Shown: piece after piece, positions 9,644 through 36,797 of the stretch
How the letters are laid out: every line of letters starts with the position of its first letter
Position numbering within the stretch: position 1 is the first letter of the stretch
Assembly (NCBI GenBank): GCA_964390045.1
Contig: CAYMGP010000001.1
Coordinates: forward strand, 28,748-92,747
DNA: 64,000 bases
Direction of reading: 5' to 3'
Origin: an uncultured Spirochaetaceae bacterium
Lineage (GTDB): Bacteria > Spirochaetota > Spirochaetia > SZUA-6 > DRHE01
Position numbers and translations under genes: made by a program
Notes under the pieces: generated by a model
What the model saw: only the letters and a program-made list of their open reading frames with translations
Told to the model about the DNA's origin: nothing
The model's database searches: none

Positions 9644-9657
9644 ACCGATACTCCTCT

Positions 9658-18820: not shown

Positions 18821-18841
18821 TCCTCAATCTGTTGGATCGAA

Positions 18842-19708
18842 TCAATACTTCAAATACGAAAGGGACTGCCGTGTCTTCTTGAGCTTATCCCAAGACGGCG
18901 ATCCCTGTCGTAAGCTAATCGAAACGAACAGGGTTTCAATAATCGCCAGCTGCACAATCCGAGTGACCAGCGCGTCTGTTAAATAATTCATCTCTTCGGT
19001 GACCGTAGTAATACACACGTCAGCGATGCTTCCCAAGGGGCTGTTGGCGAAACCTGTCAGTGCAATCACTTTTGCAGGAGGACGGGCGTTTTCCACGGGA
19101 ATTACCACATCTTTGCTTTCTCCCGAATAGGAGATACAGAAAATAACATCACCTTCTCGCGGATCAGAAAGAGTGACTGCATTTATATGGGAATCCATGC
19201 AGAAGTAGCAGGGCAATCCGATCCTTGTGAACTTGAAAAAGGCATCATATGCGATGGCCCCGGAGGATGCGTATCCGAGGAAGATAATTCGCTTGGCTCC
19301 TTCGATCAGTTCGACCGCTCTCTGCAGGGTTTCATCTTTTACAGCCACCAGATTCTCATGGAGCGTCTGCACTGCTCCATGAAAAATCTTTTTCTTGATA
19401 TCTTTGATCTCGTCCTGCACGGTGATGTCTTCGTAGGTATGATAAAAGGAGGTTCCGGCCAACTCCGTGGCCAAAGTTACCTTGAAGTCGTGATATCCCG
19501 AAAAACCGAGAGTTTTATAAAACTTCACGATAGAGGATTCGCTGCGAACTCCCGTTTGTCCGGCCAGTTGGGTAATCGACATCTTGATCACATCGTATGG
19601 GCTGCCGATCACGTATTTGGCAATCCGTCGTTGAAGAGGCGTCATATTGACTGACTTCCGCCGAATGACGTTCAATACAGGCACCGCTTCCAAGGAGTTG
19701 ACTACCAT
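18842..19708 (-). CDS. MurR/RpiR-family transcriptional regulator (HTH + SIS domain)
   Basis: 288 aa. N-terminal RpiR-type HTH (TPLQRRIAKYVIGSPYDVIKMSITQLAGQTGVRSESSIVKF) and a C-terminal SIS phosphosugar-binding domain (IIFLGYASSGAIA, FCISYSGESKD). Confidence 0.85.
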   Translation of the reverse strand: MVVNSLEAVPVLNVIRRKSVNMTPLQRRIAKYVIGSPYDVIKMSITQLAGQTGVRSESSIVKFYKTLGFSGYHDFKVTLATELAGTSFYHTYEDITVQDEIKDIKKKIFHGAVQTLHENLVAVKDETLQRAVELIEGAKRIIFLGYASSGAIAYDAFFKFTRIGLPCYFCMDSHINAVTLSDPREGDVIFCISYSGESKDVVIPVENARPPAKVIALTGFANSPLGSIADVCITTVTEEMNYLTDALVTRIVQLAIIETLFVSISLRQGSPSWDKLKKTRQSLSYLKY

Positions 19709-19977
19709 AATCGATTCACCCAGAAATAGTAAAAAATTAAAAAAATAATTTTGTTAATTTTAGCGGAATAAACCCTCTTTGTCAAGAAAAATTTTTGTAT
19801 TTGTCAGCTTAACAGTATTCTATGCTTCTTGTCGCGACTTCTCCCACCGGGAATAAGGGGTGACAAACTACGGTCTTTCGGGTGTTGCATCAATGGGTGA
19901 CAGATATCTAACAATGAACGTGATTTTCAAAGGTATGCTATAATTATGGTTTAAGCAATTTTTGAAGGAGGAAGCGA

Positions 19978-20253
19978 ATGACGGTAAAAGAAGAAAAATT
20001 GGAAAAAGCAAGGAAAATCGCACTGAAAAAGATGGATTTCATCCGCCACTTCTTGATCTACATCGTGGTCATGGCCGTCCTGGCGGTCATCAACAACACC
20101 ACCTGGTCGGGATATCAGTGGTGGTTGTGGCCGGCTCTCGGTTGGGGAATCGGGGTGGTGGCTCATTTCCTCAGCGCATTCATCTATCAGGGCGGCAGTC
20201 TCGAAAAACGGCTGGTCGAGCGGGAACTGGAGAAGATGAAAGATGAGGAGTAA
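19978..20253 (+). CDS. 2TM domain-containing membrane protein
   Basis: 91 aa. GGAGG RBS. Matches the 2TM-family consensus (FIRHFLIYIVVMAVLAVIN ... WWLWPALGWGIGVVAHF). Confidence 0.65.
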   Translation: MTVKEEKLEKARKIALKKMDFIRHFLIYIVVMAVLAVINNTTWSGYQWWLWPALGWGIGVVAHFLSAFIYQGGSLEKRLVERELEKMKDEE

Positions 20254-21139
20254 GAGGACCTGGATCGATATCCTTGCTCCCGTATTCGGGGTGCTGACCG
20301 TTGTCCTGGTCGTGTATTCCCTTGTGCATCTTCTCTGGCTCGAACCGTTCTACCGCGGGGAGAGCTATGGTCTGTCCCGGGGCGAGCGGCGGGGCTTTGA
20401 TGTTGGACCTGGTTGGCAAAGTCAGGAGGCGAGGGAGCGTTTCGAGGGCGCATTCAGCGATCTGGAGATTAAAAACATTTCAGGCCCCGTCAACATAGAG
20501 GGTTGGAACCAGGATTCCGTCGAAGTTCACTACATCAAAAAGGCGCGTAGCGCCAAGTACCTGGAAGAGTTCGAGATTGAGATCGAAGAGCGGGGCAATA
20601 CTCTCTTCGTCCGTCCCCGGTACCGCAAGATTCCCGGATCTCCCTTCGGGTCTGTGTCCTTCGACGTGAAAGTGCCGGCTTCCATAAAAGAGATCACCGC
20701 TAGCAACGTTTCCGGAACAATTAATCTCGAAAACCTGGCAGCCTCCGTCGATCAGGTGCTGGAAACGGTTTCCGGACGGATCTCGACTGAGCTCTCGGGT
20801 AACTTGCGGGCAAAATCGGTCAGCGGCTCGATAAGCTTCGCTTCCACGGGCCGCCTCCTCGATATCCGTTCCACCTCGGGCAGGATTCGCGGAGAAATAC
20901 TCGCTCTGGACCCGAGCGGCTCCGTTGAAATCGAGACCATATCCGGGGGTGTCGATCTGCAAGCCTTCCCCGGACTGGATGCATCGCTGCGCCTTCAGTC
21001 TGTGAGCGGCTCGATCTCCTGCGACTTTCCCGTTCAGATCAGGGAGCAGAAACGAAACCGCCTCGACGGGGATATCGGAAAGGGTTCGGTCCCCTTCCGG
21101 GTGCAAACGGTCAGCGGCCGCATCCATCTGCACGAGTGA
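20243..21139 (+). CDS. DUF4097-family protein (LiaG-like putative beta-helical envelope protein)
   Basis: 298 aa. N-terminal TM segment, then degenerate SG(S/R)I repeats (VSGSISFAS, TSGRIRGE, ISGGVDLQ, VSGSISCD, VSGRIHLH) typical of DUF4097. Overlaps the 2TM gene by 11 bp. Confidence 0.55.
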   Translation: MRSKRTWIDILAPVFGVLTVVLVVYSLVHLLWLEPFYRGESYGLSRGERRGFDVGPGWQSQEARERFEGAFSDLEIKNISGPVNIEGWNQDSVEVHYIKKARSAKYLEEFEIEIEERGNTLFVRPRYRKIPGSPFGSVSFDVKVPASIKEITASNVSGTINLENLAASVDQVLETVSGRISTELSGNLRAKSVSGSISFASTGRLLDIRSTSGRIRGEILALDPSGSVEIETISGGVDLQAFPGLDASLRLQSVSGSISCDFPVQIREQKRNRLDGDIGKGSVPFRVQTVSGRIHLHE

Positions 21140-21346
21140 CTCCGCACCGGTGTAGGTTCGCCAGAAGTAAGGATTCGTCCATTTTTTCCCGTAGGTGAGC
21201 GTTTTTTCTGAGTTTTCCGTCGCTGAGCGCTTATTCCGCTAATATATATTCTTTTCATTCGCAGGGCACATCGCGGGTAGATCGGCAGAATCTTAGCACA
21301 TCAACGTGGATCTGGGGAATCTGTTGCTTCGGACGAGAAATTTTGC

Positions 21347-21649
21347 TTATTGTCCTGTCATTACGATCGTATAATCTATAGAGTAACCTTCATAACTTTC
21401 AACGACAAAATATCCCTTGTCTCCCGCAGTTGTATCCATCGTATACGTAAGGGATGATGAACCACCGCCTATCCAGAAATAGTTGCCGCCATATTTATCA
21501 TAGAACCCGAGATCGAGATCTCCTGAAGGAATCCAATCCATATCAAATTCTATGCTGCTGGCGGTGCCGGCATATCCGATATAATAGTCCTCATCTCCAG
21601 CTCCGACGGTACCTTCAATCGTGATTACACAGCCCGGAGCGGATCGCAT
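21347..21649 (-). CDS. orphan 100-aa ORF resembling a bacterial pre-peptidase C-terminal (PPC) domain; possibly a gene remnant
   Basis: No signal peptide. The sequence (DLDLGFYDKYGG..., YTMDTTAGDKGYFVVESYEGYSIDYTIV) follows the PPC-domain pattern (D.DL.LYD ... GtYyi.V.gy.g.g.Y.l). It is isolated between convergent operons. Confidence 0.3.
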   Translation of the reverse strand: MRSAPGCVITIEGTVGAGDEDYYIGYAGTASSIEFDMDWIPSGDLDLGFYDKYGGNYFWIGGGSSSLTYTMDTTAGDKGYFVVESYEGYSIDYTIVMTGQ

Positions 21650-21741
21650 ATAGGTGTAATGGGGATTACCTCTTACGGGGGCTCACGGAGGACTCGGTAC
21701 GAGCAATCTACAACTATACTACAGCCTGTAACGTTATCCTG

Positions 21742-22761
21742 CTACAACCGCCGACACGATCCCCGATCAATGAGCTGTTGTTTTACCTTCAGTACCCGCA
21801 GGTCCTGGATGTCATCATGAAGTAGATTGATAATGAGGTCTCCTGCCAGGTTGCCCAATAGGGCGGTGTTGATGCTCAAGGTTGTAATTTGGGGGGTAAA
21901 CGTTTCGCTGTACGAGAGTGTATCCCCTGGAGCTATTATTGAAACATCTTCAGGCACGGAAAGGCCCATTTTTGAAAGCACGTAGATAATCCTGGCTGCT
22001 ATATAATCATCATGCGCGAAAATCGCGGTTGGTCGCTCTTCCGATTTGAAGGGGACGGTAAGTCTATCTTCCAATTGGATGAGATCGAGTACGTCGCTGA
22101 TCGTTATCCTGGAGCTGGGTGAAAACGGGATGTCGTGCTCGTCTACTGCTTTCTTGAATCCGATATACCGATCGGCAACAACGGTGGGGACGTCGGTGCG
22201 CTGATATTCCACATAAATAATTTTCTTGTGTCCGAGTTCGATAAGGTGCATCGCCCCTTCATAGGCTCCCTGGAAATCATCGACACAGACAGTGTGAAAC
22301 CGGTTTTGTACATTGCTGTTGTTGATGATCACCACCGGGACTCCGATCTCCTCGAGCATTTCAAAGAGGTGTTCGTTGATGTAATGAATCGTGCACACGC
22401 CTGCTGCTCCGGATGCGAGTATTTTCCGAAAAAGCTCCTCCGTATCTACCTGGAGATTGATGTCCATCAAAAGGGGAAAATAGGACGCCTTGAAGAACAC
22501 CGATTCCAGTTCGGTGATAAACGGCTTGATAAACAACCACTCGTAGTCCCAGGAAAGGTAGTTGAGAACAGCAATGTATTTAAAACTTTTTTTGCCGGAA
22601 GAAGAAGTGTACTGCTTTTTGCGGTAACCGGTTTTCCAGGCAGCTTCGAGGACTCTGCTCGTTACTTCTGCGGAAATTTTTCCTTTCCCCGAAAGCACCA
22701 TTGATGCAGTAGTTATGGATACTCCCGCTTCTTTTGCTACGGCTTTTAATGTCGGTTTCAT
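21742..22761 (-). CDS. LacI-family transcriptional regulator
   Basis: 339 aa. N-terminal LacI HTH (PTLKAVAKEAGVSITTASMVLSG) and a periplasmic-binding-protein-like sugar-binding domain. Confidence 0.85.
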   Translation of the reverse strand: MKPTLKAVAKEAGVSITTASMVLSGKGKISAEVTSRVLEAAWKTGYRKKQYTSSSGKKSFKYIAVLNYLSWDYEWLFIKPFITELESVFFKASYFPLLMDINLQVDTEELFRKILASGAAGVCTIHYINEHLFEMLEEIGVPVVIINNSNVQNRFHTVCVDDFQGAYEGAMHLIELGHKKIIYVEYQRTDVPTVVADRYIGFKKAVDEHDIPFSPSSRITISDVLDLIQLEDRLTVPFKSEERPTAIFAHDDYIAARIIYVLSKMGLSVPEDVSIIAPGDTLSYSETFTPQITTLSINTALLGNLAGDLIINLLHDDIQDLRVLKVKQQLIDRGSCRRL

Positions 22762-22886
22762 GGTGCTGTATTCAGATAGTATCGAAATATTACGATTAGT
22801 GGATTTAAATAGAAATTAAACTCATGTCGATCAGTTGTGTCAATCAGAAAAACCTCCACCGACGACATTATTTTATTGAAAAATCT

Positions 22887-22898
22887 TTGTAATTACAA
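22887..22898. promoter_or_regulatory. perfect 12-bp palindrome TTGTAATTACAA, candidate LacI-family operator
   Basis: A self-complementary sequence in the divergent lacI / ABC-operon intergenic region. It resembles LacI/CcpA-type TGTAA..TTACA operators. Confidence 0.45.
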
Positions 22899-22929
22899 TT
22901 AAAAAAACTATTAATTTCATTAAAATTCG

Positions 22930-22957
22930 TTGACAATTGACTGATTCATGCTAAAAT
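22930..22957 (+). promoter_or_regulatory. sigma-70-type promoter for the CUT1 ABC transporter operon
   Basis: TTGACA (22930-22935), 16-nt spacer, TAAAAT (22952-22957). About 35 nt upstream of the GGAGG RBS and the ATG at 22993. Confidence 0.55.
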
Positions 22958-22992
22958 ATTTAGCAAATTTATAACCAAAATAGGGAGGAGTT

Positions 22993-24306
22993 ATGAAAAA
23001 AAATGTTCTCCGTAAATTAGTACTGGTTGTTGCCCTTCTGCTGGTAGGGGGGCTGCTGTTCGCAGGCGGAACTCAGGAAGGAGCAGCAAAAGAATCAGGC
23101 GCTGCCGCACAGAAAATGGAAGGTGAGATCAAAATCGCTCACGACAACCCTGAATGGCAATCCATCTGGGAAACGTTCGGCGAAGCTTCGAAAGAAGATA
23201 TCGGTATCGAAGCAATACCTGTCGAGTTCGAGACCCAGGTGTATAAATCCAGAGTCAAAGTTGATCTCGGCTCAAACCGTGCACCGGCAGTATTCAAATG
23301 GTGGTTTGGATACCGAGCCCAGGAACTCCTAGAAGCTGATCTGATTTTAGATTTAAGCGATGTGTGGGCGGAAGTAGAAGACAATTTTGCCCCCGGATTG
23401 AAAGATGCGCTTACATTTAACGGAGTTCCATATGGTTTCCCGTTTAACACCGGATACTGGGTGTGGTACTATTCAAAGGCAGCATACGATAAGATGGGTT
23501 TTGAACCTCCTGAAACCTGGGAAGATTTCGAAGAACAACTTGCCGCATTTAAAGATGCGGGGATCAGCGGAATCGGTAATACTATTGGGAATTCAAGATG
23601 GACTTCTTTTATCGTTATTCAAGAGATCCTCTACCGACTCGACGCTCAGTTCTATAGCGATCTGGTCAACGGCAAAGCCCATTACACCGACGACACCATG
23701 GTTCAGGCGATGGAAATCTGGAAATCCTGGTTGGATAAAGGATATTTTGCGCCAATGGATGCCACTTACGTAGAAGACCTGCCCCGGATGCTCAAAGATG
23801 GAAGTCTGGCCATGGCTCCTTTCGGAGATTGGTACGGCGGAATCCTCCAGCAGCAGGGACTGAAACCAGTAGAAGACTATGGGGTTATGATTCCTCCCGC
23901 AGCTACGGAAAAAGGCAAAGGAGCTATTATTCTCGAAGTAGCTCCGCTGTGTGTTGGGAAAAATACACCTAATCCTGAACTGGCAAAAGAATGGTTGAAG
24001 TGGTATGCCAGCTCTGACAGCGCCGCGGACATTCTTTGGGGGAAGCTGCGGTTTGCATCTACGCTCAATGTGACCATGGACATGATCAAACAGGACGATC
24101 CAATTCTAGCAAAAGAATATCAGATGCTCGAGGATTATCCCACTAAATTGGTTCGCTACTGGGAAGCGACTCCGGTTGAAATCGTTGAACATGCAGTTGA
24201 TGAGTTCAATACCATGTTGGTAGAACCGGATAAGTACATGGAGATAATTGAAAGTATCGAGGCCAAGGCCAAAGAAACCTGGCCGAACTACGGTGTAGAT
24301 TACTAA
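22993..24306 (+). CDS. extracellular solute-binding protein, ABC transporter family 1 (carbohydrate)
   Basis: 437 aa. Signal peptide/lipobox-like N-terminus (MKKNVLRKLVLVVALLLVGGLLFAGG) and an SBP_bac_1 fold. Confidence 0.85.
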   Translation: MKKNVLRKLVLVVALLLVGGLLFAGGTQEGAAKESGAAAQKMEGEIKIAHDNPEWQSIWETFGEASKEDIGIEAIPVEFETQVYKSRVKVDLGSNRAPAVFKWWFGYRAQELLEADLILDLSDVWAEVEDNFAPGLKDALTFNGVPYGFPFNTGYWVWYYSKAAYDKMGFEPPETWEDFEEQLAAFKDAGISGIGNTIGNSRWTSFIVIQEILYRLDAQFYSDLVNGKAHYTDDTMVQAMEIWKSWLDKGYFAPMDATYVEDLPRMLKDGSLAMAPFGDWYGGILQQQGLKPVEDYGVMIPPAATEKGKGAIILEVAPLCVGKNTPNPELAKEWLKWYASSDSAADILWGKLRFASTLNVTMDMIKQDDPILAKEYQMLEDYPTKLVRYWEATPVEIVEHAVDEFNTMLVEPDKYMEIIESIEAKAKETWPNYGVDY

Positions 24307-24322
24307 GACACTAATAATAAAT

Positions 24323-24360
24323 GCCGGGGTAATCGTTGTTTTACCCCGGCTGTTTTTTTT
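24323..24360 (+). terminator. rho-independent terminator/attenuator after the binding-protein gene
   Basis: 10-bp stem GCCGGGGTAA / TTACCCCGGC with an 8-nt loop, followed by TGTTTTTTTT. Confidence 0.7.
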
Positions 24361-24376
24361 GTAAACCAATTGTGGT

Positions 24377-25252
24377 ATGACGAAACGAACAATCAGAAGA
24401 GATAATCCATACCTGTTCCTCATTCCGGCGCTTATCCTGGTAGCACTGGCCGAGCTGGTACCAGTGGTCTACACCACCTATCTCGGATTTATGAAGTGGG
24501 ATTTGATAAATCCGCCGGAGTGGACGGGGCTTAAGAACTATATTGAAGTATTTTCAACTCCCGAACTCTTGAATGCATTGAAGAACACTGTGTTCTGGGT
24601 GGTGGGAACCCTGATATTTCCGGTTGGCCTAGCCCTGTTTATTGCGGTGATGATTAGTCGGATACGTATGCAGACCGTTTACAAGGTGGTTTTCTTTATC
24701 CCCTCTACCCTTTCCCCAACCATAGCGGGAATTTTCTGGCAGCGGGTACTGGCCAGTCAGAAAGGGGCGATCAATGCAATTTTGGTAGCTCTCGGGATGG
24801 AATCTCAAGCTTTGATTACCAACCCGGAGATCAACACCATTTTGATGATCGGGGTGTGGACCTGGCAATTTTTGGGGCTTAATCTGATCCTGTTTTTGGT
24901 CGGGCTTGAGACCATCCCCAAAGAGCCGATTGAAGCGGCCAGGATCGATGGCGCTTCACCCTGGCAGGTATTCACTAATGTGACATTTCCCCTGCTTACA
25001 CCGATCACCCTGTTGGTAGTGGCGAACTCAATTATCAATACGGTGCGTATGTTCGATATCCCCTGGATCATAATCCAGGGGGGACCGGGGAGAGCATCAG
25101 AGACACTGGCCATATCGCTATACAGGGAATCATTTCTACTCTTTAATATGGGGTTGGGTTCTGCCATTGCAGTCATCATTTCCATTATTACCCTTGCCCT
25201 CACCTACCGATACTTGGTGTCCACCGGACAATCTCAGAAGAGGAAGAAATAG
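24377..25252 (+). CDS. carbohydrate ABC transporter permease (MalF/UgpA-like)
   Basis: 291 aa. Six TM helices and an EAA-type loop (IEAARIDGASPWQVFTNVTFP). Confidence 0.85.
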   Translation: MTKRTIRRDNPYLFLIPALILVALAELVPVVYTTYLGFMKWDLINPPEWTGLKNYIEVFSTPELLNALKNTVFWVVGTLIFPVGLALFIAVMISRIRMQTVYKVVFFIPSTLSPTIAGIFWQRVLASQKGAINAILVALGMESQALITNPEINTILMIGVWTWQFLGLNLILFLVGLETIPKEPIEAARIDGASPWQVFTNVTFPLLTPITLLVVANSIINTVRMFDIPWIIIQGGPGRASETLAISLYRESFLLFNMGLGSAIAVIISIITLALTYRYLVSTGQSQKRKK

Positions 25253-25254
25253 TC

Positions 25255-26091
25255 ATGAGCCGGACGGCATCAAAATCGATTATCTATATCGTCTTGACTA
25301 TTTTTGCTTTGGTGTGGGTGTTCCCTTTAGTTACAACCTTCTTAACGATAATAAAAAGTCCGGACAGTTTTTCAGAACTGACCTTCTGGCAGCTGCCGAA
25401 ACTGAACAGCATTCCTCAAAACTTAAGATTCAACTTTGGGTATGCTCTGGAGAAGGCAAAAATCGCCATTGACCTGTTTAACAGTCTATTTTACGCGGTT
25501 ATTGCGGGGATTGGGTCTGCCTTTATTGCGGCTCTGGCTTCTTACGCTCTTGTGTTTTTAAACCTGAAGCGGCCCCAATCCTGGTTTATCGGGATTTTTA
25601 TCGGAAATCTTTTTCCCTTTCAGATGTTCCTTATCCCCCTCTATCTCTTTCTCAATTCGTTGGGGCTCTTTGATACAAGACTGGGGCTTACCATGGTCTA
25701 TGTAGGTATCTGTGTTCCATTTGCTTTGTTTGTATATCGCAATTACGCCTACACCATTCCGCAGGAAATTTTCGATGCTTCCAAAGTTGACGGAGCCTCC
25801 ACCTGGGGCGCATTTTTCAGGATATTTCTTCCCATGTCCGTACCCGCGTTCACCGTTGTGTTTATTTTTCAATTTATCTGGACCTGGAACGATCTCCTCT
25901 TCGGCCTGGTCCTCTCCGAACGATTCCGGCCGGTCATGACCGCACTGTCCAAGCTGATCGGAAGCAGGGGAGGAGTGCCGGCGACAGTTTATATCGCCGG
26001 TGCAGTATTTGCTGCAATTCCTACGGTGATAATCCTGCTGACCCTGCAGAAGCAGTTTGTTAGAGGATTTACCATTACCGCGGAGAAATAG
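25255..26091 (+). CDS. carbohydrate ABC transporter permease (MalG/UgpE-like)
   Basis: 278 aa, with an EAA loop (FDASKVDGASTWGAFFRIFLP). Confidence 0.85.
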   Translation: MSRTASKSIIYIVLTIFALVWVFPLVTTFLTIIKSPDSFSELTFWQLPKLNSIPQNLRFNFGYALEKAKIAIDLFNSLFYAVIAGIGSAFIAALASYALVFLNLKRPQSWFIGIFIGNLFPFQMFLIPLYLFLNSLGLFDTRLGLTMVYVGICVPFALFVYRNYAYTIPQEIFDASKVDGASTWGAFFRIFLPMSVPAFTVVFIFQFIWTWNDLLFGLVLSERFRPVMTALSKLIGSRGGVPATVYIAGAVFAAIPTVIILLTLQKQFVRGFTITAEK

Positions 26092-26133: not shown

Positions 26134-27366
26134 TTGACAAGCCAGCAACGTGTAACAGCGGCAGTTGATCATCGTGAACCGGACCAGGTGTCGATAGATT
26201 TCGGCGGACACCGTAGCAGCGGTATTATGGCTTTAGCCTACAAAAAATTGCGTGAGTATCTCGATTTTCCAAGAAAACAGATAAAAATATATGACATGAT
26301 CCAGCAGCTGGCAATCGTCGATGCGGATGTGCTCGAGCGGTTCGGAGTTGACACCATCGAGATGGGCCGTGGTTTTGCCTTGGATGATAAGGATTGGAAG
26401 GAGTGGACGATGCCGGACGGCACCGAGGTACTTATCCCCTCCTGGGTGGACGTCCTAAAAGAGAACAACAGTTGGATTGTCAAAGCGCCCTCCGGTGTGA
26501 ATAGTGGTATTCAACGCGAAGGGATGATTTATTTCGACCAAATTTACTGGCCCTATAAAGAGGCAGTTCCGGATGACCTCTCCGAACTTCCCGATGCATT
26601 GGCCGATGTCATGTGGTCGGTGCCTACACCCCCCCATTTGGGGCAGACGAGTATCGAAGAACTGACTGAGGGGGCCAAGAAACTGAGAGAGTCTACGGAT
26701 CGATATATCATTTTTCTATTCGGAGGCAACCTCCTTGAAATATCGAGCTATCTCTGCAGCATACCTGAGTTTATGATGCTCATGGCCGGTGAGCCTGAAA
26801 GAACCCACCGATTGTTGGATGCATTGGTAGAGTTCCACAAAAAAAATATAGACACATTTATTCCCGCAGTAGCACCCTATATTGATAACGTCCTCTTCGG
26901 GGATGATCTGGGAATGCAATCCGGACCGCTGATATCCCCCGACATGTACCGGGAATACTTCAAACCGAGACACGAAGAACTGTGGAAATATGCGAAAAAG
27001 GTAAGCGGGAAAACCGTGCAGCTTCACTCCTGCGGCAGTTTACGGCTGCTTCTGGATCAATTGATTGATGCGGGGCTTGATGCAGTTAATCCGGTTCAGA
27101 TAAGCTCTGCCGGGATGGATGCAGCGGAGTTGAAACAGGAGTTTGGAGATAGGCTGTGTCTGTGGGGCGGTGGCTGTGATACGCAGCATGTTCTTCCCAA
27201 CGGAACTGCTGAACAGGTCAGAACCCACGTGTTGGAACAGTGCGAGATTCTTCAACCAGGTGGCGGATTTGTATTTCAGCAGGTGCATAACATCATGGCC
27301 AATGTTCCGCCTGAGAATATCGTGGCTATGTTTGATGCGGTCGCTGAGTTCAACGGGAAGAAATAA
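26134..27366 (+). CDS. uroporphyrinogen decarboxylase (URO-D)-family protein (MtaA/CmuA-like methyltransferase fold)
   Basis: 410 aa. URO-D-like C-terminal region (GDDLGMQSGPLISPDMYREYFKP, LHSCGS, LQPGGGFVFQQVHNIMANVPPENIVAMFDA). It is the last gene of the sugar ABC operon. Confidence 0.65.
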   Translation: MTSQQRVTAAVDHREPDQVSIDFGGHRSSGIMALAYKKLREYLDFPRKQIKIYDMIQQLAIVDADVLERFGVDTIEMGRGFALDDKDWKEWTMPDGTEVLIPSWVDVLKENNSWIVKAPSGVNSGIQREGMIYFDQIYWPYKEAVPDDLSELPDALADVMWSVPTPPHLGQTSIEELTEGAKKLRESTDRYIIFLFGGNLLEISSYLCSIPEFMMLMAGEPERTHRLLDALVEFHKKNIDTFIPAVAPYIDNVLFGDDLGMQSGPLISPDMYREYFKPRHEELWKYAKKVSGKTVQLHSCGSLRLLLDQLIDAGLDAVNPVQISSAGMDAAELKQEFGDRLCLWGGGCDTQHVLPNGTAEQVRTHVLEQCEILQPGGGFVFQQVHNIMANVPPENIVAMFDAVAEFNGKK

Positions 27367-28381: not shown

Positions 28382-28714
28382 CTAGTGATCGCAGGCGTTG
28401 TCTCCCGTTTGCAGGTCTCCCTTCAGGTAGCTGTCGACAGCCGCCTCGGGCTCCACGCTGGGCGCTCCGTAGATCACTTCGATGCCTGCCTGTTGGAACA
28501 ACTGCAGGGCCCTGTTACCCATTCCACCGGCGATGACCATGGTCACTCCCTGCTCTTTCAACCAGCGCGGCAGCAATCCCGGTTCGTGGGGGGGTGAGCT
28601 CAGATCCTCACGGCTGCTTAGGGCCCGATCCTCAACCTCAAATATCAAAAACTGCTCGCAGTGGCCGAAATGCTGGGAGAGCCTTCCTCCTGTCACGGGC
28701 ATGGCAATTTTCAT
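28382..28714 (-). CDS. NifB/NifX-family (dinitrogenase FeMo-cofactor-binding fold) protein
   Basis: 110 aa, with the family pattern MKIAMPV...HFGHCEQFLIFEV ... VTMVIAGGMGNRA. Confidence 0.7.
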   Translation of the reverse strand: MKIAMPVTGGRLSQHFGHCEQFLIFEVEDRALSSREDLSSPPHEPGLLPRWLKEQGVTMVIAGGMGNRALQLFQQAGIEVIYGAPSVEPEAAVDSYLKGDLQTGDNACDH

Positions 28715-29538
28715 GAAACTGTACCTCCTTGATCCAGTTTATCTATTATGGTACTGAAATCCTCTTTCGCTTCTTCGTATTCAAGCGCATAGGGCTTTCC
28801 TCTGTCCGTGGAGGCCACGATCTCCGGACGGATCGGGATGCGGCCGAGAAAGGGAACACCCATCTCCTTGGCGGTACGCTCGCCGCCTCCACTGGAGAAT
28901 AGATCGATACTCTTGCCGCAGTGCGGGCAGATCAATCCGCTCATGTTCTCCAAGATTCCGAAAACGGGCATGTTAACCTGCCTGCAGAAGGTGATGGACT
29001 TGCGGATATCCAGCAGGGAAATTTCCTGCGGCGTCGTTACCACGATCCCTTGCGCCTTGGGAATCACCTGGGCGACCGTCAGAGGTTCGTCTCCGGTACC
29101 GGGGGGTGAATCGATAAGAAGGTAATCCAGCTCTCCCCATTGAACATCGGCGATGAATTGCTTGATCGCTCCGATCTTTAATGGCCCCCGCCAGATCACT
29201 GCCGTATCTTTGCTGTCCAGGAGCGCAGCCATGGATATCAACTTCATGTTTTTTCCGTATGGAATCGGCAGCAGACGGTTTCCGTCCATGCGCACCGGCT
29301 CGCCCTCCAAGCCCAGCATCTTCACCGTGCTGGGGCCGTGCAGATCCACATCCATCAGGCCCACGGAAGCTCCTCGCTCGGCAAGGACGGCTGCCAGATT
29401 GATGGCCACGGTGCTCTTGCCAACCCCTCCCTTCCCGCTCATGATCATGTATATATATTTGACCCGCGAAAGTTGATCCGCGATTCGTTTATCCTGTTCC
29501 TGTCTTTCCTGTTCTCTATTCCCGGCATCGTGAGTCAT
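28711..29538 (-). CDS. Mrp/NBP35-family P-loop ATPase (Fe-S cluster carrier ApbC-like)
   Basis: 275 aa. Walker A (SGKGGVGKSTVAINLA) and a C-terminal CPHCG motif. Overlaps the NifX-like gene by 4 bp. Confidence 0.85.
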   Translation of the reverse strand: MTHDAGNREQERQEQDKRIADQLSRVKYIYMIMSGKGGVGKSTVAINLAAVLAERGASVGLMDVDLHGPSTVKMLGLEGEPVRMDGNRLLPIPYGKNMKLISMAALLDSKDTAVIWRGPLKIGAIKQFIADVQWGELDYLLIDSPPGTGDEPLTVAQVIPKAQGIVVTTPQEISLLDIRKSITFCRQVNMPVFGILENMSGLICPHCGKSIDLFSSGGGERTAKEMGVPFLGRIPIRPEIVASTDRGKPYALEYEEAKEDFSTIIDKLDQGGTVS

Positions 29539-29628
29539 AATTCTTCCTTTCTTTCACTCTTGCCTGTATTATTATGATGATACCCAAAAATCTTGTTTTT
29601 TTGGCAAGATTTTCGGGTGTCAGAAGAC

Positions 29629-29668
29629 ATCGCAATCTTCCTTTTCAGTTGCGATCGAAGATTGCGAT
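29629..29668. promoter_or_regulatory. 12-bp inverted repeat ATCGCAATCTTC / GAAGATTGCGAT (TTGCGAT motif occurs three times)
   Basis: Arms at 29629-29640 and 29657-29668 in the divergent Mrp / DUF134 intergenic region. A third TTGCGAT copy lies between them. Confidence 0.4.
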
Positions 29669-29695
29669 ATACCTTTCTGTAATATAACAAATCTC

Positions 29696-29743
29696 TTGAC
29701 AAATGAGAATATGTTCATTATACTTTTTAATGAGAATATTCTC
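29696..29743 (+). promoter_or_regulatory. sigma-70-type promoter plus downstream perfect palindrome GAGAATATTCTC (candidate operator) for the DUF134 gene
   Basis: TTGACA (29696-29701), 17-nt spacer, TATACT (29719-29724). The 12-bp perfect palindrome at 29732-29743 lies between the -10 element and the RBS. A direct repeat AATGAGAATAT occurs at 29702-29712 and 29730-29740. Confidence 0.5.
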
Positions 29744-29757
29744 AAAAAGGTTGGATA

Positions 29758-30285
29758 ATGTCCAAACCAAAAAAACACAGGAGAGTCCAGTATCCTCCTT
29801 CCGTCGTTTATTTCAAACCCCAGGGAATTCCTATGTTTCAGCTCGAGCAGATAACGCTGGCCGTTGACGAGTACGAAGCGGTCCGTCTGGTGGACAGGGA
29901 AGGCCTCGATCAGGAGCAGGCGGCCGAGCGAATGGGGGTTTCCCGGGCAACCTGCGCCCGCATCCTGGACAGTGCTCATAAGAAAATAGCAGAAGCGCTC
30001 ACCCAAGGCAAGGCAATTCGCATCGAAGGCGGAAATTTCACCTTGAGGTTGAACCGCTACCGCTGTCTAGACTGCGGCACTGTCTGGGAGCAAGACCTGG
30101 ACGGGGCAGAACAAACCGGACAGAACGCAACCCCGACCTGTCCGAATTGCAAGAGCACACGAGTACTCGATTTCGCTCGTCAGGCAGGTTGGCGTCCGGC
30201 TACACCTTGGACAGCAGAAAAGAGACATGGCGGGGAAAGCGGTGGTTTTGAAAAAGGAAGAGGAGGAGGGCTCTGGAGCTCCTGA
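29758..30285 (+). CDS. DUF134 (UPF0251)-family protein with C-terminal zinc ribbon
   Basis: 175 aa. N-terminus MSKPKKHRRVQ..., an HTH-like segment (LDQEQAAERMGVSRATCARILDSAHKKIAEAL) and a CxxC...CxxC ribbon (CLDCG...CPNCKS). Confidence 0.65.
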   Translation: MSKPKKHRRVQYPPSVVYFKPQGIPMFQLEQITLAVDEYEAVRLVDREGLDQEQAAERMGVSRATCARILDSAHKKIAEALTQGKAIRIEGGNFTLRLNRYRCLDCGTVWEQDLDGAEQTGQNATPTCPNCKSTRVLDFARQAGWRPATPWTAEKRHGGESGGFEKGRGGGLWSS

Positions 30286-30309
30286 CAGTCTTTTCATCTA
30301 TAGGAGGAA

Positions 30310-30696
30310 TTGTCTATGAAAATTGCTATCAGCGCCAGCGGAACCGATCAGAACGCCCAGCTTGATCCTCGTTTCGGCCGTTGTCAGTACTTCGTAATCG
30401 TGGACACGGAGAGCGGGGAAACGACCTCCGTTCAAAACCCCGCCCAGTTCGCCGGCGGCGGCGCCGGCCCCCAGGCGGCCCAAACCGTCGCGGATCAGGG
30501 CGCCGAGGTCGTGCTCACCGGCAATGTCGGGCCGAACGCTCATCGCGCGCTCCAGGCTGCCGAGGTTACCGTTGTCACAGGAGCAAGCGGAACAGTGTCC
30601 GAGGCGCTGCAGAACTACAAAGAAGGAAAGTACTCGGCCGCCGAAAATCCCACGGTTCGGCCCCACTTCGGCCTATCCGGAGGAAAGCAAGGCTGA
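30310..30696 (+). CDS. NifB/NifX-family (FeMo-cofactor-binding fold) protein, second copy
   Basis: 128 aa (MKIAISASG...RFGRCQYFVIVD ... VVLTGNVGPNA). GGAGG RBS. Confidence 0.7.
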   Translation: MSMKIAISASGTDQNAQLDPRFGRCQYFVIVDTESGETTSVQNPAQFAGGGAGPQAAQTVADQGAEVVLTGNVGPNAHRALQAAEVTVVTGASGTVSEALQNYKEGKYSAAENPTVRPHFGLSGGKQG

Positions 30697-31889: not shown

Positions 31890-33128
31890 TTAAAAGAGGT
31901 ACATTGGATAGGAGTCGGGGTTTTTGCCGAAGAGCGTGATCTCGTCTACCTGTTTTATCTTGTCGCCCAAACAGAGGGCGAAAAGACAGCGCTCGATACC
32001 GAGACCTCCGCCGAAGGTCTCCGGAAACAGGGGTCGGCCCTCCTCGTCTTTCTGGTAAGCGGCCAGCAGAAAGGGTCCGTAACCGCCGAGCTCGTCTATA
32101 TTTTCGATCCTGTCCATGTCGATCTGCGGTCTGGCCGCGAGTATCTTGTTGTCGATCAGCCTCTCCACGATGGCTTCGTACAGCCACTCCCTCAAGCCGC
32201 CGGAGAGAACCTCGTAAGCCGGGCCGAATGAGTTGTCCCTACGCTGAAGGCTCTGCGCGCAGAGGTCGTAATTGTACACCATATCCGAGCTGAACTCGGA
32301 AAGAGGGATCTTGCCGCCGTCTGCCTTCAGATACGGATAGATCAGATCATAGTTCTCACGCAGCAGGCCTGTGATCCAGAAGAAGTGGCCTTTAACCGTC
32401 TTTCCCAGGGGCTGCTCGATCGCCTTGGAACCAACCTTGTTCAAGGCCTCATCCCGACGGAAACGGGGGAAGGGTGTCTTGGGGACCTTGAGAGCAACTC
32501 CGAGGGCTTCGAGATTCTCTGCATTGCGGTCGGCGACCGCCTCCATAGCTACGACGATGAGGCGTTCGAAAAAACTCAGGGCCTGCTCGTGATCCTCTTG
32601 CAGGATTTTCTTCACCTTTTCCGTACTGTGCAGATAGGTTTCCAGATCCACGCCCCGGTTGCGCCGCGCCTCGATATCCATTTGGGAAAAATCGATCAGG
32701 TACTTGTTTCTCTGGACCCGAAAGGGGCTTTCCATCTCCAGACGTATGTTCGGGGAGTCTACGAAGATCCCTTTTATCTTGGGATTAAACAGAGAGAGCA
32801 TCTTGCAGTAGATCATCGAGTGGGTCGTCATGTAGATCTGGCCCTTGTAGCGGATCGAGGGGGTATGCTCAACGTCGTGGGCTAAAGGATCGGTGACAGG
32901 GCTCAGGGAAATCCGCTCGATGTTGAACAATCCTTCCGAGGCCAGGTGAAGCTGCAGGGCATTGACCAAGGTGGTGCGGATGGCCAGGGCGTGGTAGAGA
33001 TTGTCGCCCAGCCACTTCTCAATGTAGTCTTTGCGGATAAACTCCCCGAGAGAGCTGCCGCTCTCAGTGAGGGCCGCCTGGTAGTTGAACAAGCTCTGAC
33101 CGACCTGCTCGCCGATGGATTCATGCAT
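31890..33128 (-). CDS. class II aminoacyl-tRNA synthetase-like catalytic-core protein (AsnA/AspRS-paralog type) lacking an anticodon-binding domain
   Basis: 412 aa. Motif-3-like FGGGLGIERCLFALCLGDKIKQVDEITLFGKNP (compare GGGIGIDRLVMLL of AspRS/AsnRS/LysRS-type enzymes). Motif-2-like FRVQRNKYLIDFSQMDIE. No N-terminal OB fold. Confidence 0.55.
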   Translation of the reverse strand: MHESIGEQVGQSLFNYQAALTESGSSLGEFIRKDYIEKWLGDNLYHALAIRTTLVNALQLHLASEGLFNIERISLSPVTDPLAHDVEHTPSIRYKGQIYMTTHSMIYCKMLSLFNPKIKGIFVDSPNIRLEMESPFRVQRNKYLIDFSQMDIEARRNRGVDLETYLHSTEKVKKILQEDHEQALSFFERLIVVAMEAVADRNAENLEALGVALKVPKTPFPRFRRDEALNKVGSKAIEQPLGKTVKGHFFWITGLLRENYDLIYPYLKADGGKIPLSEFSSDMVYNYDLCAQSLQRRDNSFGPAYEVLSGGLREWLYEAIVERLIDNKILAARPQIDMDRIENIDELGGYGPFLLAAYQKDEEGRPLFPETFGGGLGIERCLFALCLGDKIKQVDEITLFGKNPDSYPMYLF

Positions 33129-33144
33129 GATAGGGACTCCTCTA

Positions 33145-34110
33145 TTATGTGTATATTTCCTCGCTCAACTCGGCTACTCTCAGACCCGTCTCGCCGGGAA
33201 CCGGCGGTTCCCTGTTTTGCAGGAACGCCTGAGTAACCGCTTCGATGTAGGGCAAATGAAGGTTGGGGTGCGGCGGGTGTTCCTCTGAGCGCCGGCCCTC
33301 TGCGTTGATGACCGTCATCGCTCCGTCGTTCAACACGGGAACATGGATCGAGCCTGTGCTCCCGTAGATATCAAAGCTGTCCTGGGGCTCTTCAATGGCC
33401 CGACTGACCGCCAGCAATCCCCGGGCTTCGTTCTCGAACTCGAATACGGCCACCGTGGTATCCTCAACATCCCAGTCTGTAAGAATTCGTTCGCTGCTGC
33501 CCCAAGCCTTGGTAACGTTCCCGAGAACATTCAGAAAAACTTCTATGCGATGACATCCGAAATCCATCAGAGGTCCACCGCCTCCAAGTTCCTTGCGCGT
33601 TATCCAGTATTTGGGATCTTCCGGCTCCGGGCGAAAGCTTTCGAAGGCGCGGATCTCGGCCAGTACGGGTTTGCCGATTTCACCAGCGGCGATCGTCTCT
33701 TTGATTCTCTCGATCAGCGGATAGAAACGTCGATAGTAGGCGATGCTCAACCGCACGCCGTTACCCCTGCAGGCATCGATCATCCGCCTGCACTCCCGGG
33801 CATCCAGGGCCATGGGCTTCTCGCAGAGCACGTGCTTGCCGCAGGCAGCCGCGGAAATGGCCTGCCGGGCGTGAAGATGTGGGGGAGTGGCCACGTAGAC
33901 CGCGTCTATCTCTTTATCCTCGAGCAGGTCCTGCCAATCTCCGTACCAACGCCGGGCTCCGAACTCTTTTGCAAAGGCTTCGGCCAAATCACGGCGGGCA
34001 CGGCTGACGGCGACCAGCTCGCAGCTCTCCAGATCCCTGAGAGCGGGTGCTATCCGCTTTCGCGCGATATCCCCGCAACCAATGAGCCCCCAGCGTAATT
34101 CTTTCCTCAT
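33145..34110 (-). CDS. Gfo/Idh/MocA-family NAD(P)-dependent oxidoreductase
   Basis: 321 aa. Rossmann N-terminus LRWGLIGCGDIARKRIAPAL and a EKP motif (HVLCEKPMA). Confidence 0.85.
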   Translation of the reverse strand: MRKELRWGLIGCGDIARKRIAPALRDLESCELVAVSRARRDLAEAFAKEFGARRWYGDWQDLLEDKEIDAVYVATPPHLHARQAISAAACGKHVLCEKPMALDARECRRMIDACRGNGVRLSIAYYRRFYPLIERIKETIAAGEIGKPVLAEIRAFESFRPEPEDPKYWITRKELGGGGPLMDFGCHRIEVFLNVLGNVTKAWGSSERILTDWDVEDTTVAVFEFENEARGLLAVSRAIEEPQDSFDIYGSTGSIHVPVLNDGAMTVINAEGRRSEEHPPHPNLHLPYIEAVTQAFLQNREPPVPGETGLRVAELSEEIYT

Positions 34111-34168: not shown

Positions 34169-34393
34169 TCAATCAAAGTCAGAGAGCAGGGCGGGCTGCC
34201 TTACAGGGCTCGCAGCGACCCCGGGCAGCTTGTCTGTTACCGGACAGTGCTCAGGTATCATTTCCAGCACAATGTCCAGCTCCTCTCGGCATATCATTCC
34301 GCAGCGTAGAAGAAGCTGTAGAATCTTCAGGGTGGAATCGGGATAACCTCCGCCGGCTGAAAGCTTTCGAACAGATGCACCCGGTTTTTGCAT
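34169..34393 (-). CDS. small hypothetical protein (74 aa), uncertain
   Basis: An ORF with no recognisable domain. It sits in a 340-bp gap between the URO-D-like and Gfo/Idh/MocA genes. Its coding status is unproven. Confidence 0.2.
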   Translation of the reverse strand: MQKPGASVRKLSAGGGYPDSTLKILQLLLRCGMICREELDIVLEMIPEHCPVTDKLPGVAASPVRQPALLSDFD

Positions 34394-34452: not shown

Positions 34453-35448
34453 TCAACCCTTTTTCAGAGGATAGCGGCCGCAGGAGCGGGCGGTTTCGAT
34501 CATTACACGAAAGTTCTCCGGCCGTACCGCGGAGGTGATGGAGTTGCCGGAGGAAAGGATGTGACCTCCGCCGGGAGAGACGGCTGCAATCAGCTCTCGA
34601 GTCGCGTGCCTGACTTCCTGCTCGCTGCCGCGGCAGAGCAAGTCGACATCCACATTGCCCACCACACAGACCCGGTCCCCGGCGCGGCTCTTTACCTCTT
34701 TGAGATCCATGCCGGCTCCCGGCTCCAGAGGTCCGATGCCGTCGATGCCCGTGCTTACGATATCTTCGAGAATCGCCAGAATATTCCCGTCTGTGTGTTT
34801 GACGCAGTAGGCCCCCGCCGCCTTGACGTTCCGAACCGCTTCCGCAAGCTCGGGCAGCACGAACTCCCTGAAAAGAGCGGGCGACATCAGGGTGCCCTCC
34901 TTGTGGGCGTAGTCATCACTGAGGATGACCACATCGACGCCCTCCTCGATCGCCAGGCGATGAAGCTCCCGGCTGTATCCGCCGACGATTCCAGCCAGTG
35001 CCCTGGCGAACTCCGGTTCGAGCAGGTAGCTTTCCAGGAGCCTCTCCATTCCGCAGAGGTACCAGCAGGCGGCAAAATCGTTCCGGGCTACGAGGACCAC
35101 GGCGCGCTTTCCCTTGAAACGGCGAACCACCTTGCGCACAGCCTTGAGTACCGGGTCCCGCCGGGGATCCGGCACGGGGAAGTCGGCCAGCTTCTCAACC
35201 CCGAGTTCCCGGCCGATCGGATGCCCGTAGGGCAGCGGCAGTATCTCCTCGGTGATGCGCCTGCGCACTCCCCAGATATCTTTGTAGCTCTTTATCACCT
35301 TGAGCAGCAGGGGTTTCAATCCGAGCAGGTACATGACTTGATTAACAGAAACCCCCTCCAGATCGAAGCGCTCGATCATGTCGAAATACCCGGAGCAGCC
35401 CAGACCGCCGATAACCTTCCAGTCGATGGCCATCTCCATCAACGGCAC
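34453..35448 (-). CDS. URO-D-family protein (methylcobamide:CoM methyltransferase MtaA-like fold), second copy
   Basis: 331 aa. C-terminal URO-D-like signature (VVGNVDVDLL, GGGHILSSGNSITSAVRPENFRVMIETAR). Confidence 0.65.
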   Translation of the reverse strand: MPLMEMAIDWKVIGGLGCSGYFDMIERFDLEGVSVNQVMYLLGLKPLLLKVIKSYKDIWGVRRRITEEILPLPYGHPIGRELGVEKLADFPVPDPRRDPVLKAVRKVVRRFKGKRAVVLVARNDFAACWYLCGMERLLESYLLEPEFARALAGIVGGYSRELHRLAIEEGVDVVILSDDYAHKEGTLMSPALFREFVLPELAEAVRNVKAAGAYCVKHTDGNILAILEDIVSTGIDGIGPLEPGAGMDLKEVKSRAGDRVCVVGNVDVDLLCRGSEQEVRHATRELIAAVSPGGGHILSSGNSITSAVRPENFRVMIETARSCGRYPLKKG

Positions 35449-35519
35449 CCTGTCCGGAGTACCTCGTTCGAGGGCTGTTAAGATTCTCTCTCGCGGTGTA
35501 ATGGCTTTCTCCTTAAAAA

Positions 35520-36797
35520 CTAAGCTTGCTCTCTGTAAAAGGCCGCGGCCATAAAGCTGACCAGAGAGTCGTTCGCATCATCCACTGCCTGCTCGTAGCC
35601 GAGCAGGCAAGAGCTCTCGATATCGAGGACACGCAGCAGACAATAAACAGCAGGCACCCCGCATACATTACGACGGTTTCCCTGCTCCACGATACCGCGA
35701 AGAAAATCCTCTGCCTTTCCCTCGAGTATCGAGTCGATCATGGCCCTGTCCTCCGTTTCGACCTGTTTGCACAGTGCGGGGCTCACGGTTACATTCTGCC
35801 CGAAGCGCTGCCCCATGTGGCTGAGGTCCACCCCCGCGATGCAGCAGACCTCGGATCCGTTCTCGGCCAGAGCAGCCTTCAGAGCGCCGATGAACTCCTC
35901 GACTTCGGGATTCTGCTGCAGCGAATCTTCAGAATGGGCGCTCTGCTGCTCGACTCCCGACGGCAGGGAGCAGAGAATGGGAACGATGCGCAGTCTCTCC
36001 TCATCACGGTACAGGTAGCGGAGAAACAGCGTCTGGAACTCGATGGAGTGCTCGCTGCGGTGGACGAACTCATCCTCGTAGAAATCGCTTTGACAGCGGC
36101 TCGAGATAGCCTCGAGGAAATTCCTGTCTGCAGGAACAACGCCGAGAGGAGTTTCAAAATCCTTGTCCGTCAGCACGAAGCTGCGGCGCGTTGGCGCGTG
36201 GGAAATACCGAGGATCACGAATGTTCGAGCGCTGCACTCCCGGGCCAGCTCAGCGTAGCTCAGGGCAAAACAAGCTCCGCCTCTGTTCAGATCTATATGA
36301 GGAGCAATCAAGCCGCACAGACTGCCCTTGGTTTTTTTTGTTTTTTGCGCCCGGGGTCGGAGGTCTGACTGCGACTCCGGCTCCGGGACAGCGGCAAACA
36401 GGGCATCCAATTGCTGCCTGCACTCCTCCGCTCCAGCCTGGTAGGACAACCCTGCGTGAGAGGCCGGGCGAACCGATGCAGCCCGGAACTCTTCGATCGC
36501 TTTCCTTCTCTGCTCTCGAAAGCGGTCCGAGTCGAGAAACAGGGCTCCGTCCAGCTGCTCTACGATCTGTTTGACCTTGTCGCTGAACACCAGATCGCCG
36601 AAGCGGCGGGTATACTCGGCTTGAATGTCGAGAATCGAATGCCTGCCGTCGAACAGGGAGACGACGAAGAACACGGGTCGGGGAAGCAGAAGCAACTTGT
36701 CGGTGAAGCCCTGAGGATCCCTGAGACAGATCATGTTGTCCCGGGTGGGAATCGCTTCTACCTGGCGGAGTTTCGGATATTCCATTCCAGGCATCAC
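35520..36797 (-). CDS. MEMO1-family (AmmeMemoRadiSam system protein B-like) protein with about 110-aa N-terminal extension
   Basis: 425 aa. MEMO motifs RPASHAGLSYQAG, GLIAPHIDLNRGG, ILGISH, GVDLSHMG. The N-terminal extension (LLLLPRPVFFVVSLFDGRHSILDIQAEYTRRFGDLVFSDKVKQIVEQLDGALFL) resembles a PqqD/RRE-like peptide-binding domain. That resemblance is tentative. Confidence 0.65.
   Translation of the reverse strand: MMPGMEYPKLRQVEAIPTRDNMICLRDPQGFTDKLLLLPRPVFFVVSLFDGRHSILDIQAEYTRRFGDLVFSDKVKQIVEQLDGALFLDSDRFREQRRKAIEEFRAASVRPASHAGLSYQAGAEECRQQLDALFAAVPEPESQSDLRPRAQKTKKTKGSLCGLIAPHIDLNRGGACFALSYAELARECSARTFVILGISHAPTRRSFVLTDKDFETPLGVVPADRNFLEAISSRCQSDFYEDEFVHRSEHSIEFQTLFLRYLYRDEERLRIVPILCSLPSGVEQQSAHSEDSLQQNPEVEEFIGALKAALAENGSEVCCIAGVDLSHMGQRFGQNVTVSPALCKQVETEDRAMIDSILEGKAEDFLRGIVEQGNRRNVCGVPAVYCLLRVLDIESSCLLGYEQAVDDANDSLVSFMAAAFYREQA

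Follow-up and report, generated by a model that had tools for sequence, protein, structure and literature searches.

Among the described relatives of the class II aminoacyl-tRNA synthetases (aaRS), the one most like the protein considered here is AS-AR ('AsnRS2') of Pyrococcus abyssi and P. furiosus (PDB entries 3P8T, 3REU, 3REX, 3RL6 and 1NNH), a catalytic core without an anticodon-binding domain. The archaeal-type AspRS and AsnRS (1B8A/3NEL and 1X54) carry an N-terminal OB-fold anticodon-binding domain and a hinge, E. coli-type AsnA (11AS/12AS) forms another AsnA lineage, and EpmA/GenX (the EF-P lysine ligase) and the amino acid:carrier-protein ligases (Bll0957) are truncated class II cores which act on non-tRNA substrates. 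We analysed a 64,000-nucleotide stretch (hereafter the window) of contig CAYMGP010000001.1 from an uncultured Spirochaetaceae bacterium, in which an open-reading frame (ORF) at 31890..33128 on the minus strand encodes a 412-aa, stand-alone, class IIb aaRS-like catalytic core, which we refer to as the long-form AS-AR-like protein. It shares its fold, collinear motif blocks and the missing anticodon domain with AS-AR, is truncated in the manner of EpmA and the carrier-protein ligases, and has neither the OB-fold nor the hinge of AspRS and AsnRS. With moderate confidence we read it as a tRNA-independent, ATP-dependent aspartate-ammonia ligase of the AS-AR/AsnA type, because of its fold, its collinearity with AS-AR, its invariant residues, the lack of a tRNA-binding domain and the nitrogen- and asparagine-themed gene context of its homologues; we infer the substrates, the nucleophile and the role of an N-terminal extension and several insertions.

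The gene is real, because it has more than 1000 homologues which share 57-83% identity with it across several phyla: 1132 were found at E ≤ 1e-3, and among the matches listed these were ~410 aa long and 59-100% identical. Pfam assigned the protein the class II core alone (PF00152, residues 40-394, 27.7 bits against a cutoff of 25) and no anticodon-binding domain (no PF01336 match), as a preliminary description of this DNA had concluded from the letters. That description had also named the AsnA-type amide synthetases as one class of possible relatives, and these proved nearest. The best NCBIfam match was the archaeal asparagine synthetase A family NF005054 (E = 3.6e-33, 115 bits, in two stretches), the AspRS models reached 24-30 bits against cutoffs above 350 (aspS_nondisc 30 against 368), and the AsnRS, LysRS and EpmA models had no NCBIfam match at E ≤ 0.1. 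Against the PDB sequences, residues 42-157 matched AS-AR of P. abyssi and P. furiosus, whilst residues 177-326 matched AspRS of Pyrococcus and Thermococcus and resemble archaeal AspRS 1B8A in sequence more than they do AS-AR; a profile built from 20 family sequences placed the AS-AR entries 3P8T and 1NNH on top (E = 3e-16). The blocks collinear with AS-AR are SPxTDPL, THSMIxxK, FVxSPNIRLE, (D/E)FxQxDxE, FWIxxxxRExYD, ExxSGxxREWxYExI and GxGIGxER. An AlphaFold2 model computed from a 46-sequence alignment had a mean predicted local distance difference test score (pLDDT) of 92.8 and a predicted template modelling score of 0.91, and a Foldseek search of the PDB with this model returned 3REX, 3REU, 3RL6, 1NNH and 3P8T within the best seven matches. 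Template modelling scores to the AS-AR entries, normalised on the target, were 0.80-0.83, with archaeal AspRS and AsnRS ranking after them, and the predicted fold superposes on solved AS-AR across the whole chain.

Other assignments were tried and rejected. Aligning the family profile with hhalign to E. coli-type AsnA gave 28 columns around motif 3 at a probability of 14%, detectable profile similarity to that lineage is confined to this motif, and tblastn with E. coli AsnA had no match in the window or any other fetched locus. An AspRS or AsnRS was rejected on the missing N-terminal OB-fold, the scores far under the family cutoffs and the absence of an asnS match. Likewise, an EpmA/GenX was rejected in the absence of a genX/EpmA model match joined to an EF-P/EpmB partnership, and an amino acid:carrier-protein ligase in the absence of a SerRS-like or atypical core joined to an adjacent carrier-protein gene. 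The preliminary description had reasoned that full-length alignment with ordinary AsnA, in a genome lacking any other asparagine synthetase, would make the protein a housekeeping enzyme; there is no such alignment with the E. coli enzyme, and the collinearity is with the archaeal type, which the long-form protein exceeds by ~120 residues and whose family cutoff it does not reach.

The catalytic motifs are conserved throughout. Motif 2 lies in residues 120-155 (32664..32771, minus strand; SPNIR129LE131 ... DFSQ149MD151IE153), is invariant in the long-form proteins and their ~300-aa relatives, and is collinear with FVLSPNIRLE / EFTQLDFE of AS-AR; motif 3 (FGGGLGIER380CLFALCL) occupies residues 371-386 (31971..32018, minus strand). 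Both SPNIRLE, with R129, and GGGLGIER, with R380, are unchanged in 83 orthologues, as are 25 of 26 checked positions in these species-level genomes (83/83), the full catalytic set and the paralogue pairs included. The HSMIYCK block at residues 103-109 (32802..32819, minus strand) contains the invariant S104 and K109, whose counterparts are S72 and K77 in E. coli AsnA and the QSPQxxK block in AspRS, and the E306-V-L-S309-G310-G-L-R313-E314 block (32187..32213, minus strand) corresponds to E248, S251 and R255 of E. coli AsnA and to EVSSGGEREW of AS-AR. Motif by motif, the conserved residues align to S72, K77, R100, Q116, D118, E248, S251, R255 and R299 of E. coli AsnA, which we take from AsnA and AspRS structures to be the asparagine- and AMP-binding residues. 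K109, R129, E131, F147, D151, E153, G373, G375, G377 and R380 are invariant across both the long-form proteins and the ~300-aa relatives, and D80, P81, S104, Q149, R257, Y260, D261, D288, E306, S309, G310, R313 and E314 are nearly so. The loop TDPLAHDVEH (residues 79-88, 32865..32894, minus strand) sits where AspRS has its flipping loop, and the pLDDT dips there. Its TDPL is common to the long-form and the AS-AR-like proteins, and some ~300-aa relatives share a DPLxHxV loop; H84, D85 and E87 are invariant in the long-form proteins, and position 88 is histidine in 69/83 and tyrosine in 14/83. The residues of HDVEH (84-88) are also spaced as in the HxxEH metal sites of inverzincins.

On these assignments, the protein would be a long bacterial offshoot of AS-AR, itself derived from the catalytic core of an archaeal-type AspRS/AsnRS. 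ATP-Mg would be bound by R129 and E131 of motif 2, R140 of the motif 2 loop, E306 and R380 of motif 3, and L-aspartate by S104, K109, Q149, D151 and R313, whilst the TDPLAHDVEH loop would close over the substrate. Beta-aspartyl-AMP would then form with release of pyrophosphate, and attack of ammonia on the adenylate would yield L-asparagine and AMP. Trypanosome AsnA-type enzymes also accept glutamine (PMC3854871), a caveat on the nitrogen donor.

The protein is not an ordinary member of NF005054, it belongs to a tight, separate clade of ~410-aa proteins. Whereas AS-AR has 294 aa and the compact AS-AR-type size is ~290-320 aa, the 412-aa protein has about 100-120 more residues than the AS-AR-like proteins, placed in an N-terminal extension and about five insertions. 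The extension (residues 1 to ~38, 33015..33128, minus strand), absent from the ~300-aa AS-AR-like proteins in the alignment, forms two helices in the model (H5-22 and H27-40) and is not an OB-fold anticodon-binding domain; it is all that the model places before the core. From the alignment with AS-AR-like proteins, the larger insertions are residues 157-177 (32598..32660), helical in the model, residues 266-283 (32280..32333), with an additional short insertion at 296-303, and residues 329-345 (32094..32144), with another at 360-366, all on the minus strand. H84, D85, E87, Y94-K95-G96, R155-R156, N286-Y287-D288 and Y350-G351-P352-F353 are invariants specific to this clade. Its nearest relatives outside the clade are bacterial, ~300-aa AS-AR-like proteins (e.g. 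P0153, P0156, P0163 and P0190), which have the same catalytic set without the extension and insertions and are 27-36% identical to it, chiefly over the N-terminal half. Searching 1.84 billion cluster representatives exhaustively, we found only about six that are full-length, at 47-57% identity and 347-484 bits.

Scanning GTDB with one genome per species, we found relatives in 292 genomes, from which the best 80 loci were taken for the survey of gene context; neighbour counts are over 83 loci, with loci numbered L001 onwards. By record title the carriers belong to Spirochaetaceae, Chitinivibrionales/Fibrobacterota, Pirellulales/Phycisphaerae, Neomarinimicrobiota, Bacteroidetes/Ignavibacteriaceae and Lentisphaeria, together with many Desulfobacterota. 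Databases name the homologues 'hypothetical', 'aspartyl/asparaginyl-tRNA synthetase' or 'amino acid--tRNA ligase-related protein', and the literature searched contained no published description of the ~410-aa clade. Compared with archaeal AS-AR, the long-form proteins are bacterial, found in metagenome-assembled genomes (MAGs) and situated within glnA-gltBD, purF and asnB clusters. Within Desulfobacterota, a 410-aa subclade (in the order glnA, long-form gene, gltB) can be told from a 407-aa subclade (purF or asnB followed by the long-form gene). Three MAGs carry two copies on different contigs (L043 and L046, L057 and L062, L033 and L058); in two of these pairs both copies lie amid nitrogen genes, and neither copy of any pair has lost the checked catalytic residues.

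The gene neighbourhoods, determined by calling and clustering ORFs and naming the recurrent clusters with Pfam and NCBIfam, centre on nitrogen assimilation outside the Spirochaetaceae clade. There, one or more nitrogen-assimilation genes (glnA, gltBD, amtB, glnK, glnD, purF and asnB among them) occur within five genes of the long-form gene in 55 of 74 loci, and in 28 of the 74 the gene directly before it, on the same strand, is glnA. Over the 83 loci, glutamine synthetase is adjacent in 32 and within three genes in 41; the other recurrent neighbours are the GOGAT large subunit (19 loci), a GAF-sigma-54 activator (16), PurF (15), the GOGAT small subunit, P-II and GlnD (12 each) and Amt (11); HisH/HisF, NadE, GlnE, PyrG and CarA also occur. 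The usual orders are glnA, long-form gene, gltB, gltD and purF (or asnB), long-form gene, for example in L003-L007. A search for the sigma-54-type pattern TGGCA[CT]-N5-TTGC[AT], with a background of 0.015 per 370 nt, found sites 45-173 nt ahead of glnA in 11 of the 28 loci with glnA directly before the long-form gene, against ~0.4 expected (L018, L043, L044, L052, L064, L066, L068, L069, L075, L078 and L079), and none in the spacer between the two genes (median 63 nt) in any of the 28. Since the sites precede glnA and the spacer holds none, the sequences suggest that both genes belong to one nitrogen-regulated operon. In seven Desulfobacterota loci (L033, L036, L039, L048, L051, L056 and L062; e.g. 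L056:7421-8683(-)) a ~420-aa protein (cluster c14) is convergent with and adjacent to the long-form gene; it has a signal peptide, is predicted to be secreted or membrane-anchored, has no Pfam or NCBIfam match and is probably unrelated to the long-form protein.

In the window the surroundings are different, and the 64 kb contain no asnA, asnB, asnS, glnA, gltB, amtB or glnK. Directly upstream of the long-form gene, at 33145..34110 on the minus strand, lies a 321-aa NAD(P) oxidoreductase ORF with the N- and C-terminal domains of the Gfo/Idh/MocA family (PF01408 and PF22725). Its stop codon is 33145-33147, and a 16-nt spacer, containing a GGAG ribosome-binding site (33137..33140, minus strand) 8 nt before the ATG at 33128, separates it from the long-form gene, with which it is probably co-transcribed. 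The preliminary description had the gap and the family right and the direction wrong: it placed the long-form gene upstream, yet both genes are on the minus strand and the long-form gene is the downstream one. The Memo-like (35520-36797) and URO-D/MtaA-like (34453-35448) genes which it reported nearby are present further upstream, on the same strand. A sigma-54 promoter was not found near either the oxidoreductase or the long-form gene in the window, where pattern matches were fewer than chance expectation, scans for sigma-70 promoters and terminators gave nothing interpretable, and Rfam at its gathering threshold had no match in the window, nor in eight loci that lack glnA next to the long-form gene.

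From these neighbours a sugar-linked function had been proposed, in which the long-form protein would work with the oxidoreductase, and perhaps the Memo-like and URO-D-like proteins, to make, for example, an aminoacyl-sugar or a sugar amide. The wider survey withdraws most of the ground for this. A Gfo/Idh/MocA or a zinc-type alcohol dehydrogenase (Zn-ADH) gene lies upstream only within the Spirochaetaceae clade (the window and L008-L015, ≥78% identity), in the order P-type ATPase, Memo, URO-D-like, Gfo, in some cases Zn-ADH, and long-form gene, and the Memo- and URO-D-like genes were linked to it in no lineage surveyed beyond Spirochaetaceae. Because the whole region is syntenic there, at 60-74% amino-acid identity, the adjacency reads as inherited gene order; the Zn-ADH moreover separates the Gfo and long-form genes in four species. 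Since the long-form gene lies in nitrogen-assimilation clusters in most other bacteria, the sugar oxidoreductase beside it is probably a local coincidence. The window protein is also 57-66% identical to orthologues inside glnA-gltBD clusters, with unchanged checked catalytic residues, and Gfo-family genes are abundant in saccharolytic spirochaetes. The 16-nt gap does favour a sugar link, as does the recurrence of sugar genes at this position: in L001, a closed Spirochaetaceae MAG (CP070696.1), a different Gfo paralogue (9016-9996, plus strand; 32% identity to the window Gfo over the Rossmann domain, thus non-orthologous) is directly upstream, L009 and L011-L013 have the Zn-ADH there, and L002 has an aldolase/SDR and an FGGY kinase. 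The L001 paralogue and the L002 genes leave a small probability for a real link, and we hold the sugar pathway to be very improbable. On the aspartate-ammonia ligase reading, the gene would have moved out of a nitrogen cluster in this spirochaete, with no sign of altered chemistry.

Several observations do weigh against an aspartate-ammonia ligase. NF005054 (PRK06462) has a curated equivalog cutoff of 309 bits for the whole-protein score, and the window protein's 115-bit match, although the best found, is far beneath it; the clade members P0121 and P0126, at 131 and 147 bits, likewise fall short, and of the four closest ~300-aa relatives tested, three exceed it (312-351 bits). After the full-length clade the search score falls from 347 to 76 bits or less, for the ~300-aa proteins, and the extra residues and clade-specific invariants could reshape the pocket or add an interface for a partner. 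The nitrogen context suits any amide-nitrogen enzyme, and not asparagine synthesis in particular. AsnB adjoins the long-form gene in L049 and is one gene away in L047, L063 and L073 (this AsnB is 70% identical to that of E. coli and scores 944 bits on NF006949), and in L017 a glutamine-hydrolysing asparagine synthase directly follows, so that in such genomes the long-form protein is not needed as sole asparagine synthetase. Three Desulfobacterota MAGs have an AspRS-GatC fusion near it (L050, L059 and L079; in L079:5349-7520(-) 723 aa, 937 bits on NF009460, under the cutoff of 1379), which suggests a transamidosome-type, tRNA-dependent route to Asn-tRNA in genomes that carry the long-form gene; in a 2008 review, every known AsnA-encoding genome uses AsnRS and not GatCAB (PMC2330236). 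Finally, all ~240 homologues among the matches listed and all 80 fetched loci are from MAGs or metagenomes, and a second homologue search with a Desulfobacteraceae member as query returned MAG and metagenome proteins only, with no cultured host.

One rival reading keeps the adenylate-forming chemistry and changes the reaction: aspartate or another small acid would be activated and then joined to a nucleophile that is not free ammonia (for example nitrogen derived from glutamine, an amino acid or an amine), giving a nitrogen-storage or signalling amide other than asparagine. The scores far under the asparagine synthetase A cutoff, the about five insertions, the clade-specific invariants around the substrate loop, the partial redundancy of a second asparagine synthetase beside AsnB and the use of glutamine by the trypanosome enzymes noted above all fit this; nevertheless the protein retains every residue common to the AS-AR-like proteins, no partner gene (glutaminase, carrier or acceptor) is conserved with it across lineages, and E. 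coli likewise has both AsnA and AsnB, and we regard such a change of reaction as unlikely. A HisZ-like pseudo-synthetase, which would bind Asp, Asn or ATP and modulate glutamine synthetase or GOGAT as a sensor, draws on the 28 loci in which the gene directly follows glnA, probably within a shared sigma-54 operon, on the very high conservation across phyla (57-66%) and on conserved insertions that could be interaction surfaces; even so, we consider it improbable, though somewhat less so than the sugar pathway. Least probable of all is aminoacylation of a macromolecular acceptor independently of any anticodon, whether through a tRNA acceptor stem or on a protein (as for EpmA and EF-P) or a carrier protein. 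A bolder reading, doubtful in our view but deserving mention, would make the long-form protein more than a further asparagine synthetase, namely an unrecognised core enzyme of sigma-54-controlled operons (glnA, long-form gene, gltBD) in uncultured anaerobes, its HDVEH loop and insertions allowing another nitrogen donor or acceptor or a physical coupling to glutamine synthetase.

Some further features of the window were recorded. A 74-aa ORF at 34169-34393 (minus strand), between the URO-D-like and Gfo genes, matches no family, and neither an AMMECR1 nor a radical-SAM partner is visible near the pair of Memo/AmmeMemoRadiSam-B-like and URO-D/MtaA-like genes (34453-36797, minus strand). Another URO-D-like gene (410 aa, 26134-27366, plus strand) follows a sugar ABC transporter. 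This transporter and a LacI-type regulator lie within 18001-26000, which may be an acquired stretch; its G+C content is 0.45-0.53, with three of its four 2-kb bins at 0.45-0.48, whilst the rest of the window has 0.52-0.61. At 28382-30696 is a cluster of a Mrp/ParA-type ATPase, two NifX/NifB-like PF02579 proteins and a DUF134 regulator with a zinc ribbon, followed by a pterin-4a-carbinolamine dehydratase and a secreted 152-aa protein with no family match.

For this spirochaete, the analysis removes the suggested link between the long-form protein and a sugar pathway, and metabolic reconstructions should not take the protein for an AspRS or AsnRS. It occurs in at least 292 species-level genomes, which by record title belong to Spirochaetota, Fibrobacterota, Planctomycetota, Marinimicrobia, Bacteroidota, Lentisphaeria and Desulfobacterota. 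The protein is of use in annotation and in tracing how aaRS-derived amino-acid biosynthesis evolved, and its mechanism is not a surprising one. Should the bolder reading above be true, a new amide-forming step would be added to primary nitrogen assimilation. If the protein makes asparagine from ammonia, a gap in the annotation of asparagine biosynthesis would be closed for many uncultured anaerobes, the evolutionary path from AspRS to AsnA would gain a third, longer bacterial form, and the glnA-gltBD nitrogen regulons would gain a conserved member.

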